DNA of 25,957 bases, taken from positions 1 to 25,957 of the forward strand of contig DXJF01000152.1 of the NCBI GenBank assembly GCA_019057375.1, given 5' to 3'. Position 1 is the first letter of the stretch. Each line of letters starts with the position of its first letter. The notes beneath the pieces were generated by a model. That model was given only the letters and a program-made list of their open reading frames with translations, did not search any database and had not been told where the DNA came from. The DNA is from Candidatus Heimdallarchaeota archaeon. Lineage in GTDB: Archaea; Asgardarchaeota; Heimdallarchaeia; Heimdallarchaeales; Heimdallarchaeaceae. Below, piece after piece: positions 22,250 through 25,926 of this stretch. The position numbers and the translations under genes were made by a program.

Positions 22250-23746
22250 TTGAGAAAAACAAGAATTATAGGTCTATTATTCATTTTTGGTTTAACCATC
22301 ATGAGTAGTAGCCTTCTGAACACAACAGCAGGAGATACAATTCCTGCAACTATTGCCGTAATAGCTGCGCAAGATGATGGTATAATAATTGATGGAATCT
22401 TTACAGATTGGGCTAATCCAGTTCTTAGTTCTATGGATATCCTTGAATTTGGAAATCCATCTAATTATATTACAGTAGATTTCAAATTTGCATATAATGA
22501 TACTTTCCTATTCTTCTATGCATATATTCCTGCTTCTATGGGGCATGTTAAGGCTATGGATGTACACTTCTTTGGAAGATCGGATCAGAATGATGGAGTT
22601 CATATGAATGCTTATTCTCCAGAATATCTTGATTTAGCTTTTCCAGATGAAAGCGAAACAGCAACAGTTCCTCTACCTGATGAAGATTATTTTGGTACCA
22701 ACGATATAATTGCAGCATCAATTTATGCAAGCGATAGTGGTTCTTATTTCGAATTTGCCAAAGAAATTCGCTCTGGAGATGTAGCTGGAAAGGATATTCA
22801 CCTAGAATATGGAAATTCTATAGCTGTTGAATTTACCGCGTGGATTAATGTCTTTCCCGTTGATGGAGGTCCCAATTATGGTACAATCACAGAAACAGAA
22901 TTCAGATACATTCGATTGAGTGTAGGCTATAATGACGGAGACGAACTTTTAATTGGTACACCAGATGTTAGTAATCAATACCTTTGGGTAGAAGGTGAAG
23001 AATTCCAAGCACCATATTTGGATGGAGTTGTTACTTTCGATGGAATTGCTGATGAAGCAGTCTGGTCAGATGCTACATTATATAACGTTACTTTATCCTA
23101 TCAGAATTTCACTGATGGATCGTGGGACCCATTAAATACAATTACAGGTGAAATGAAACTTTTCCATGATGGAACTAATCTGTACATAGCCTTCAAAATC
23201 TATGATATATTATCTACTACTCATGATTTTCTAGCATTTATATTAGGAAAATCAGTTGATATGCTTAACTACACAGATGGTACTGATTTTGTTATGATCA
23301 ATGAACACGGCTATTCTGATGGTTTCCTTCCTGGAGATTATTCTGAACCTACTCCTGATGTTGATGTAGGTGGATCAAACGATGGTCAAGCAAATGAGAC
23401 ATATGCATCGTACTATCATCACGTTGAATTAGCAAAACCCTTAGTTACTGGAGATGCGATTGGAAGAGATTGGGATTTTTCAGTTGGAGATTATGTATAT
23501 ATTTCTACAATAATATCTGATGACTCTAATCTAGGACCAAACTACTTTGAACTAAAAGATGTAGATGGAAAAAGACACTTTGTGGTCCATGCTATCAAGT
23601 TATTAGCTCAAGGTGAAGAACCAACACAACAAGAAACTACTGGAAACACATTCACTTTAGGTTTTGGTATATCTGACTTATTAATTGTTGTTTTGGCAGT
23701 TACACCAATAATCGCGGTAATTTACAGAAAGAAATTCAAAAAATAA
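22250..23746 (+). CDS. Secreted/surface protein with tandem DOMON/CBM9-like domains and a C-terminal anchor
   Basis: Signal peptide; IDG...DW and FDG..DE..W..A...HDG.NLYIAF.I.D repeats; FEFAKEI and VELAKPL..GD..G.D; TM segment plus RKKFKK. Confidence 0.75.
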   Translation: MRKTRIIGLLFIFGLTIMSSSLLNTTAGDTIPATIAVIAAQDDGIIIDGIFTDWANPVLSSMDILEFGNPSNYITVDFKFAYNDTFLFFYAYIPASMGHVKAMDVHFFGRSDQNDGVHMNAYSPEYLDLAFPDESETATVPLPDEDYFGTNDIIAASIYASDSGSYFEFAKEIRSGDVAGKDIHLEYGNSIAVEFTAWINVFPVDGGPNYGTITETEFRYIRLSVGYNDGDELLIGTPDVSNQYLWVEGEEFQAPYLDGVVTFDGIADEAVWSDATLYNVTLSYQNFTDGSWDPLNTITGEMKLFHDGTNLYIAFKIYDILSTTHDFLAFILGKSVDMLNYTDGTDFVMINEHGYSDGFLPGDYSEPTPDVDVGGSNDGQANETYASYYHHVELAKPLVTGDAIGRDWDFSVGDYVYISTIISDDSNLGPNYFELKDVDGKRHFVVHAIKLLAQGEEPTQQETTGNTFTLGFGISDLLIVVLAVTPIIAVIYRKKFKK

Positions 23747-23763: not shown

Positions 23764-25251
23764 TTATATTTGATCAGCTTGTTTTAAATTACATATCCAC
23801 AAAGGTTTCCTTTCTATGAATAGAAAAAGATATTCTGCTAAAGAACTATCAGTTTCATAGATTTCTCCAAGCTGTTCATCTGCACCAAAAATCTTTAGTT
23901 TCTCTTTAATTTCAATTTTCAGGAATGAATCAACATTCAACATGAAAGTATTTTTCTTCACCAAACTTTCAAGAAATTCAAATACATTCTGACCTTTCTT
24001 TGTAAAGTGAATGACCCAGTGCTCATTATCTATAAATGGTCCAGCTACAACATCAACGTGCTTAGTATATTGATGTAGGAATTTAAGAGACTCCTCTGAT
24101 GTAATTAAAGGTCCTTCCTTTCTAATTGAAATCTGTGGGTTGACATCCAACAACGACAAAAATAAGCCATAATACTCATCTGAGACAAATGTTTTTGATC
24201 GTTCCAAAATATAGTTATTGTTAAATAATTCTACTTGAAAAGCATTCTTCATCGACATTGCTTTTTGCCAACAAATTTCAGTTTCCTGAAAATTTCGTTT
24301 AGTAGCCAGAATTACAAGCTGTTTACCTGAAAAGATGATTTTTCGCATAAGGTCAGAATATGATGGAATCTCACAGAGTAAATCTTCAAAGAAACTAATT
24401 TTTGGTTCAAACCTATATGTATTAGCTGCAGCCACCAATGAAGTAAATTGATCAATAGATACATCAGCTGCCACGTTATCTTTAGGATTTAGAGGATCTG
24501 GCACATACAAAGGATAATATTTCAATAGCATTTCGCTTGTTAAAAGATCTACATCTTCTAACTTCTCAATATTTTTCTTCAAATCAATAATCGTTCTAGG
24601 TCTCCAATTTCCTATTGCTTCGATAGTTTTTTGAAATGTCCCATAGAACAGAATGAGTAATTCACAAAGATATCCATTAAAACCAATTGCACCTACTTCA
24701 TTTCTGTAAACACCAATAGTCTTTAGAAATTTCTTCAGTAAAAGGACTTCATTTCTATCTTCTTCTTTCATATGAGTTATCAAGTATTGAGAATGCATTG
24801 GGATTAAATCAAAAATGGATTTTGTTTCTTCTCCAGGTGTTACCTCAAAGCCTACAAAAAGATTAACAAGTTCATCTCCTGCAACAATTCTGAGATAGGG
24901 GATTTTCCCTGTGTGCTTTGTGATTGTTATTGGATTCTTGTTTATTCTATCTTTTTTCAATCTTTTTTCCAACGCATCTAGAATTTGGTGAATCTTTGGT
25001 TTATCTGCTCTTTGCAGGATTAGCATGAGATCGAATGTTTCATCTTCACTTAGATAGGTTTTTCTGACAAAAGAACCTTGGGTCTCAACTCTCCCAATAT
25101 ACCCTAAGGAACTTAAATCTAGTTGTATCTTTTCTCTGAGAATTGAAAGAATTTCTCTTACTCTCTCATGTTGTTCCCATTGGACTTGAATTACTTCCAA
25201 AACTTTCTTTTCAATTACTTTTGAAGTATCCTTTGGGTTTTTTTTACTCAT
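23764..25251 (-). CDS. cca: Archaeal class I CCA-adding enzyme homologue with a degenerate active site
   Basis: GSF..KTYL, EV.LLKKFLK.IGVY, GF.GYLCELLILFYG.F, W, DP..P..NVAA and GP motifs match the family. Catalytic positions read T72-F-D74 and N130. Confidence 0.85.
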   Translation of the reverse strand: MSKKNPKDTSKVIEKKVLEVIQVQWEQHERVREILSILREKIQLDLSSLGYIGRVETQGSFVRKTYLSEDETFDLMLILQRADKPKIHQILDALEKRLKKDRINKNPITITKHTGKIPYLRIVAGDELVNLFVGFEVTPGEETKSIFDLIPMHSQYLITHMKEEDRNEVLLLKKFLKTIGVYRNEVGAIGFNGYLCELLILFYGTFQKTIEAIGNWRPRTIIDLKKNIEKLEDVDLLTSEMLLKYYPLYVPDPLNPKDNVAADVSIDQFTSLVAAANTYRFEPKISFFEDLLCEIPSYSDLMRKIIFSGKQLVILATKRNFQETEICWQKAMSMKNAFQVELFNNNYILERSKTFVSDEYYGLFLSLLDVNPQISIRKEGPLITSEESLKFLHQYTKHVDVVAGPFIDNEHWVIHFTKKGQNVFEFLESLVKKNTFMLNVDSFLKIEIKEKLKIFGADEQLGEIYETDSSLAEYLFLFIERKPLWICNLKQADQI

Positions 25252-25255
25252 GAAA

Positions 25256-25822
25256 TCACCTTTTATCTAATGCGTCTACTTTAAAGATTACTGAATATTC
25301 TGGTCCTTCTGATTTTAATATAGATTTTTTAAGTTGTATTGAATTAATTACTTGAACTCCGCAGCTATAATCTGAAAGGTTCTTTATAACCTTAATCAAT
25401 TGGTCCTTATTTTTAGGAGATTTCACTCGTCCTATTGTTAAATGAGGTTTAAAAGGTCTGGAATCAACTTTGAAACCCTTCTTTTTTAATTTATATCTGA
25501 TTTCCTTTTGAATTTCCTTCAGTTTCTCAATCTCTCCATCTATTTCACAATAAACAACCCTGACATGCTTCTCATTTGGTAACACTCCAGGTCCTTTTAC
25601 TTTAAGTTTCATACTTTCAAATCTTATTTCTGAAAGCATCTCAGATAATATTGTTATTTGCTCTTCCGATATCTCTCCCAGAAATTCCATTGTTATGTGT
25701 AAGATTTCAGGATTTACTAGTCTTACATTTGCACCTGAATCCCTTATTTGATTCTGAATTTCTTGTACTCCTTTCAAGATATCTTTATCTTTGAAGTTGA
25801 TAGATATGAATGCACGAACCAT
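25256..25822 (-). CDS. thpR: RNA 2',3'-cyclic phosphodiesterase (2H phosphoesterase, LigT/ThpR)
   Basis: RAFISI, HITMEFLGE and PHLTIGRVK (two intact HxT motifs), KSIL...GPEY. Confidence 0.95.
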   Translation of the reverse strand: MVRAFISINFKDKDILKGVQEIQNQIRDSGANVRLVNPEILHITMEFLGEISEEQITILSEMLSEIRFESMKLKVKGPGVLPNEKHVRVVYCEIDGEIEKLKEIQKEIRYKLKKKGFKVDSRPFKPHLTIGRVKSPKNKDQLIKVIKNLSDYSCGVQVINSIQLKKSILKSEGPEYSVIFKVDALDKR

Positions 25823-25926
25823 TTCAAATGACAGTTTCTTATCATTTTATAAATTTTGACAAGAGTTAAAATTAATTTACTTTAACAACATTTTTAATTA
25901 CTTTAACTATTCTCACAATGAGTTAA

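Follow-up and report, generated by a model that had tools for sequence, protein, structure and literature searches.

What does a CCA-adding enzyme do once it has lost the residues with which it adds CCA, and why is it kept? This question is raised by an open reading frame (ORF), cca1, at positions 23764-25251 on the minus strand of a contig from a Candidatus Heimdallarchaeota archaeon (contig DXJF01000152.1), of which positions 1 to 25,957, the whole stretch analysed, are referred to below as the window. The ORF runs from an ATG start through 495 codons with 0 internal stops, and its Pfam matches, its alignment to the Archaeoglobus fulgidus enzyme (AfCCA) and an AlphaFold2 model mark its product as a homologue of the class I CCA-adding enzymes (CCA1). 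The original prediction, made from the letters of the sequence, took this protein for a catalytically degenerate CCA1 that is conserved in a probably Asgard-like archaeon and that might be a counterpart of the eukaryotic ribosome-assembly factor Utp22/NOL6. The host is indeed a member of the Heimdallarchaeaceae, represented by a metagenome-assembled genome of 3.47 Mb (89% complete, 4.95% contaminated). As detailed below, our findings indicate that the protein is probably a conserved pseudoenzyme with a non-catalytic role, and they give no support to a specific relationship with Utp22/NOL6.

The neck domain of class I tRNA nucleotidyltransferases (PF09249) was matched by the cca1 product at 3.3e-30, and the CCA C-terminal domain (PF21133) scored 21.4 bits, just below its cut-off of 22.2 bits. 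The only solved relatives retrieved by sequence using phmmer were entries of AfCCA (1r89, E ~5e-26). [quoted passage not shown] The clade was monophyletic in our tree with 100% support in the Shimodaira-Hasegawa-like approximate likelihood ratio test. UJG40875.1 of Candidatus Heimdallarchaeum aukensis (P0116, clade cluster P0033) is 56% identical to the cca1 product over 478 residues. As judged from these sequence relationships, cca1 is orthologous to the ancestral class I CCA-adding enzyme of archaea and represents it in the Heimdallarchaeaceae ('Heim12').

Residues E59, D61 and D110 of AfCCA are catalytic, and R224 selects the base (PMC3925840, PMC3794860). Our phmmer alignment placed T72, D74, N130 and D258 of the cca1 product opposite these four residues, respectively, and paired TGKIPY with AEHPY, DLIPMH with DRTPFH, and DPLNPK-D258-NVAA with DPVDEK-R224-NVAA, thereby bearing out both the residue assignments and the coordinates of the original prediction. 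T72, which stands where active enzymes have their first metal carboxylate, is encoded by ACA (25036-25038, minus strand, as are all cca1 and thpR features below; the coordinates were confirmed by counting from the ATG at 25251), and this position holds T, S, V, A, I or L in the degenerate clade as opposed to D or E in canonical enzymes. N130, at the third carboxylate position (24862-24864), is N or H in the clade. In active enzymes the beta-turn is A-E96-H97-P-Y; here it is G115-K-I-P-Y119 (24895-24909). Among canonical enzymes conservation of its Ala and His is 96-98%, whereas in the clade the Ala has given way to Gly without exception and the position of His97 varies. In D148-L-I-P-M-H153 (24793-24810) the Arg and Thr of the AfCCA motif D-R129-T130-P-F-H133 are gone and the Asp and His are kept; the Arg129 position is variable in the clade and Arg in 100% of canonical enzymes. 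Finally, D258 (24478-24480) occupies the position of the base-selecting Arg of DPxDxxRNVAA, which is D, E, N, M or S in the clade and R in 100% of 46 canonical sequences. Only the second of the three catalytic carboxylates is thus retained, and the losses extend to the first and third carboxylates, the beta-turn Glu-His pair, Arg129/Thr130, Asp221 and Arg224.

These substitutions were common to 37/37 clade homologues and to 15/15 loci examined from the family, so that they are not private to this assembly, and the positions concerned are 89-100% conserved among the 46 canonical class I sequences. Given the loss of both catalytic and selecting residues, the cca1 product would no longer add CCA. 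For the orthologue from H. aukensis (56% identity) this loss has been demonstrated, and for the protein studied here we infer it from sequence. N130 taken alone is no proof of inactivity, because Asn also stands at the third carboxylate in a group of enzymes (P0038-P0062; 'VNIVPC' as compared with 'VD.VPC') that are canonical in other respects and keep DxD, Arg224 and a PF01909 match.

Other parts of the site have been retained. G59-S60 of the hG[GS] nucleotidyltransferase motif (25072-25077) and D74, the second carboxylate (25030-25032), show no variation in either the clade or the canonical enzymes; within the clade, the invariant residues comprise GS, D74, D148, H153, K173, Y182 and DP..N.A. 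The AfCCA equivalents of several of GS, D74, D148, H153, K173 and Y182 presumably bind the triphosphate; a search of the literature for the roles of AfCCA Lys152 and Tyr161 found nothing useful. In all, 79 columns were invariant across 35 sequences of the clade. In addition, E69, D70, E232, D233 and D235 hardly vary within the clade but do so among canonical enzymes, the last three forming part of an acidic, clade-specific and nearly invariant insertion of four residues in the neck domain (E232-D233-V234-D235, 24547-24558), which was modelled with a pLDDT of 61-72. When searched against the PDB, a profile of the clade did not match other nucleotidyltransferases, whereas a canonical profile still reached them via the head domain; PF01909 was found by Pfam in 5/35 members of the clade at E<=10.

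The original prediction correctly anticipated two other sources of CCA ends. The host genome encodes one class I gene and one class II gene, the latter located on contig C64, and its product (CCA2, 472 residues) displays intact GGFVRD...DVD, RRDFTINAL and EDYLRIFRA motifs. Contamination as the source of this gene was rejected, since the contig is 52.9 kb long with a GC content of 0.330, equal to the genome mean, and since orthologues are found in 26/30 genomes of the family, including closed ones. Outside the Heimdall group its closest relatives are from Bacteroidota (28-32% identity). Using ARAGORN, we also found CCA directly after the discriminator in 28/28 tRNA genes detected in the host genome. 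Because all detected tRNA genes already encode CCA, de novo synthesis would be unneeded, and repair of CCA ends would be carried out by the bacterial-type class II enzyme of contig C64. Beside the class II gene (L002, 2162-3028, plus strand) lies an ORF for a membrane protein of 288 residues, in which imperfect hexapeptide repeats of the type 'DHD[IV]S[VIA]' form a long stretch, flanked by a transmembrane segment on the N-terminal side and a hydrophobic or OB-like part on the C-terminal side.

The coexistence of an inactive class I enzyme with a working bacterial-type class II enzyme in the Heimdallarchaeaceae is already known from a 2026 preprint by Cassidy, Doktor, Betat, Moerl and Prohaska (bioRxiv 10.64898/2026.05.29.728689), in which the family ('Heim12') was reported to encode both CCA1 and CCA2. 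In that work recombinant H. aukensis CCA1, in which the selecting Arg is replaced by Asn, was 'completely inactive' on tRNA without CCA, its substitutions were conserved in Heim12, and the protein was labelled 'intact but silenced'; CCA2 was active and had affinity to Bacteroidota, Chlorobiota and Rhodothermota, and the eukaryotic CCA2 was derived from a Heimdallarchaeaceae-like lineage (bioRxiv 10.64898/2026.05.29.728689). The locus described here shows the same three traits as the silenced Heim12 CCA1, namely orthology, family-wide replacement of Arg224 and a Bacteroidota-like class II gene alongside. The text of the preprint makes no mention of Utp22, selection on CCA1, thpR, repair, tRNA genes or encoded CCA, or the lost metal carboxylate. 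New here are the strength of selection on the degenerate copy, the comparison of Utp22 with a canonical control, and an association between class I genes and encoded CCA.

The degenerate gene is not drifting. For four genome pairs with unsaturated synonymous divergence (dS 0.25-0.33), ratios of nonsynonymous to synonymous substitution rates (dN/dS) calculated by the method of Nei and Gojobori were 0.06-0.095 for degenerate cca1, compared to 0.19-0.27 for the adjacent gene thpR and 0.22-0.29 for CCA2. Amino acid identities over twelve genome pairs, the same for all three genes, followed suit, at 56-96% for degenerate CCA1, 39-89% for ThpR and 40-93% for CCA2. The head domain was as constrained (dN/dS 0.07-0.08) as the neck and the body/tail. 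Degenerate CCA1 is therefore under stronger purifying selection than either CCA2 or ThpR, and since it is more constrained than the very enzyme that replaced it, it probably has another job. In our tree the clade combines a stem of ~1.4-1.5 substitutions per site with a shallow crown, and this shape argues for rapid early change and strict constraint thereafter, as is typical of a change rather than a loss of function. Together with the reported inactivity of the orthologue in vitro (bioRxiv 10.64898/2026.05.29.728689), the low dN/dS upholds the earlier view of a conserved pseudoenzyme as distinct from simple decay.

We surveyed 83 Heimdallarchaeia genomes for both classes of enzyme. In the host family (designated f1) the class I gene was present in 27/30 genomes, with degenerate motifs, and the class II gene in 26/30; the class I genes came from five genera and two closed genomes, their frames were full-length and intact, and the three genomes without one were 76-86% complete. 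Families f2, f3 and f7 possess the class I gene with canonical motifs (DxD, D/E, DR[ST]P.H and R) and no class II gene. Families f4 and f5 carry predominantly class II genes (11/12 and 19/22 genomes, respectively), with class I restricted to 1/12 (a weak match) and 2/22. The degenerate motif set, present at 15/15 f1 loci examined, is thus exclusive to the one family that holds both classes. By tree, the f1 CCA2 groups with Bacteroidota and apart from that of f4 and f5, which is of one type. One Hodarchaeales-type genome of f5 (7% contamination) has a canonical thpR-cca1 pair (L005, G047:C101:62-3406) that nests in the f7 clade; the genome lacks a class II match and has a second thpR elsewhere, and the contig is probably mis-binned.

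We likewise took a census of encoded CCA, in which the acceptor stem of each sampled tRNA gene was registered and CCA was then scored after the discriminator. In families with a class I gene, CCA was encoded by 56/56 tRNA genes (f1 28/28, 6/6 and 11/11; f3 6/6; f7 5/5), as compared to 1/30 in the class II-only families (f4 0/6, 0/11 and 0/2; f5 0/7 and 1/4). This pattern suggests a link between the class I protein, whether live or dead, and the way in which encoded CCA ends are handled. We regard it only as a lead, because f4 and f5 share a single type of CCA2 and the comparison may amount to two independent contrasts.

Immediately upstream of cca1, in the same operon, lies thpR (25256-25822), which encodes a 2H phosphoesterase of the LigT family (188 residues; PF02834, 8.3e-26). 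Both of its HxT motifs are intact, H42/T44 and H127/T129 being invariant in 23 orthologues. The gene stands directly upstream of cca1 in 28/29 Heimdallarchaeia loci, canonical and degenerate alike. Its stop is separated from the cca1 ATG by 4 nt, and a GGTGA (25256-25260) that we read as Shine-Dalgarno-like overlaps that stop; the spacing and the putative function of this element suggest translational coupling of the two genes. A TATA-box-like TTTATAAA (25846-25853), likewise read from the sequence, lies ~28 nt upstream of the thpR ATG and is likely the operon promoter, which would yield a leaderless or short-leader mRNA. Dependence of ThpR on the class I protein was ruled out, as thpR is kept in f4 (11/12) and f5 (19/22) genomes without a class I gene. 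A complex prediction for ThpR with the CCA1-like protein gave a score of 0.01, which counts neither for nor against binding.

Two further observations concern other genes. A second, distant ThpR-like 2H-phosphoesterase ORF of ~224-238 residues (G000:C65:51601-52041 in the host) is present in the host and in many genomes of the genus, and matches the ThpR profile at E ~1e-11 to 1e-15. Convergent with cca1, at positions 22250-23746 of the plus strand, is a gene for a protein of 498 residues with a signal or anchor sequence and no more than a weak CBM9-like match (E 0.0037); at 40-93% identity, it occupies this place downstream of cca1 in several members of the genus.

Taken together, we consider it likely that cca1 encodes a conserved pseudoenzyme with a non-catalytic role, that is, a Heim12 class I orthologue that has lost CCA addition and is strongly constrained. 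Under this explanation, a burst of change on the stem would have been followed by purifying selection stronger than that on CCA2 or ThpR, with co-transcription with thpR still in place. As to what the role may be, we give somewhat less than an even chance, within this explanation, to a protein that binds the acceptor arm and 3' end of tRNA without catalysis. Such binding would rely on the body and tail domains, which are retained, and on a conserved pocket in which a phosphate or nucleotide moiety may still be held, and it would serve 3'-end handling or surveillance of tRNAs with genome-encoded CCA. Several points weigh against this explanation. The domains of the degenerate clade are all more acidic on average than their canonical counterparts (head -4 versus +1), which does not favour strong RNA binding. 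The four pairs behind the dN/dS ratios are close and mutually related, more distant pairs being saturated. Linkage of thpR to cca1 may be an inherited arrangement rather than functional coupling, because thpR persists where the class I gene is absent. The inactivity reported in the preprint refers to CCA addition on yeast tRNA-Phe only, by an orthologue from another genus (bioRxiv 10.64898/2026.05.29.728689). Moreover, the conserved GS, D74, D148 and H153 together with the new acidic E69, D70, E232, D233 and D235 could equally reflect a changed catalytic activity. Spelled out, the latter alternative holds that the protein is a repurposed enzyme catalysing nucleotidyl or phosphoryl transfer with a metal site rebuilt from D74 and either E69/D70 or E232-D233-V234-D235, and that loss of Arg224 opened it to a different nucleotide or RNA substrate, possibly the ends made by ThpR. 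Invariance of GS, D74, D148, H153, K173 and Y182, the near-invariance of the acidic residues in the clade as opposed to their variability in canonical enzymes, a head domain with a dN/dS as low as that of the neck, an assay confined to CCA addition, and conservation of the operon with an intact thpR are points in favour of this reading. However, the positions of the first carboxylate, His97, Arg129 and Arg224 vary freely, which fits an abandoned site and not a retuned one, and the clade profile misses other nucleotidyltransferases, with PF01909 in so few members; we regard a repurposed enzyme, the main rival, as unlikely. We are similarly doubtful of a stronger claim, namely that degenerate CCA1 is required, non-catalytically, for maturing or guarding tRNAs with genome-encoded CCA. 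In the manner of the live enzyme at termination, it might hold the completed CCA end and thereby define or protect that end during 3' processing. A required role of this kind would explain both why the protein is conserved above CCA2 and why class I genes and encoded CCA are retained and lost together. Were it true, an RNA-binding CCA1, freed from catalysis and accompanied by a bacterial CCA2, would also be the sort of intermediate that could have given rise to Utp22.

That possibility differs from the claim that degenerate CCA1 is itself the archaeal counterpart or ancestor of Utp22/NOL6, a scaffold for rRNA processing and the direct source of the small-subunit (SSU) processome protein. Utp22 consists of two class I CCA-like modules whose active sites are degenerate, and it has been proposed to be of archaeal origin (PMC3794860). 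If eukaryotic CCA2 came from a Heimdallarchaeaceae-like lineage, as the preprint reports, the ancestor would also have had the degenerate CCA1, and Utp22 (4m5d) is among the structural matches of its model (Z 20.5, 360 residues). However, the model of a canonical CCA1 from the sister family f3 (pLDDT 92.4), which served as a control, matched Utp22 (Z 21.8, 367 residues) and human NOL6 (7mq8; Z 22.0, 402 residues) at least as well, so that the degenerate copy is no nearer to Utp22 than the live enzyme is; its Utp22 score falls in the same tier as those for poly(A) polymerases, Cid1 and NF90. The Nrap family (PF03813 and companion domains) was matched by 0/35 clade members at E<=10 in Pfam, and in the host genome (89% complete) neither PF03813 nor Rrp7 (PF12923) was matched at E<=1, the sensitivity of both Nrap searches being limited by HMMER filters. 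Neither the clade profile nor the canonical profile reached Utp22/NOL6 chains among PDB sequences at E<=10; sequence profiles consequently cannot address the link. With its 495 residues the protein comprises just one module, a search for fused or longer relatives of 901-2570 residues found none (weak evidence), and cca1 still resides in a tRNA-repair operon with thpR. The reading of this protein as a specific Utp22/NOL6 counterpart is thus unsupported, and as an account of its origin and role we consider it very improbable. At the other extreme, the gene could be a functionless relic, a recent pseudogene or an assembly error heading for loss, as might be thought from its lost catalytic residues and from the deletion of class I genes in the sister families f4 and f5. 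Intact, full-length frames across five genera and two closed genomes speak against this, as do the 79 invariant columns, and the dN/dS ratios contradict it; we attach next to no probability to it.

The case bears on the 'bacterialised' translation apparatus in archaeal relatives of eukaryotes. A gene described as 'silenced' shows no drift and is held under tighter constraint than its replacement, such that a function is under selection, and this raises a testable question, namely what a dead CCA enzyme does. At the same time, the shortcut by which this protein would be the ancestor of Utp22 is removed as unsupported.

Comparison with known systems places these findings in context. Utp22/NOL6 (Nrap; PDB 4M5D, 7MQ8) shares with degenerate CCA1 a class I CCA-like fold, degenerate carboxylates and an existence beside a class II enzyme. 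In contrast to the single module described here, it is a tandem fusion of two modules (~1100-1240 residues) with Rrp7 as a partner, and its site remnants are 'degenerate and nonconserved' with an occluded RNA path, whereas those of degenerate CCA1 are invariant; the parallel is one of analogy, not of shown ancestry. NF45/NF90 (DZF domain) likewise represent a conserved Pol-beta-type nucleotidyltransferase fold that has lost its catalytic carboxylates and has been put to non-catalytic use, and NF90-NF45 chains were among our structural matches (Z 20.5-22). Their similarity is confined to head plus neck and they belong to a different lineage, and nucleotide binding by degenerate CCA1 is putative. 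AfCCA (PDB 1R89, 2DVI, 3OVS) agrees with it in the four-domain fold, GS, the second carboxylate, the neck motif GF.GYLCELL and DP...NVAA. It differs in that E59, D110, E96/H97, R129/T130, D221 and R224 are replaced in the degenerate protein, which exceeds AfCCA by ~55 residues and carries small insertions at 103-106 and 231-234, and whose orthologue is without CCA-adding activity. Closest of all is the Heim12 CCA1 of H. aukensis (UJG40875.1), an orthologue of the same clade with the same lost residues, the same thpR neighbour (L021/L022) and a Bacteroidota-like CCA2 present in the genome; it belongs to another genus, and residue 258, Asp here, is Asn in H. aukensis.

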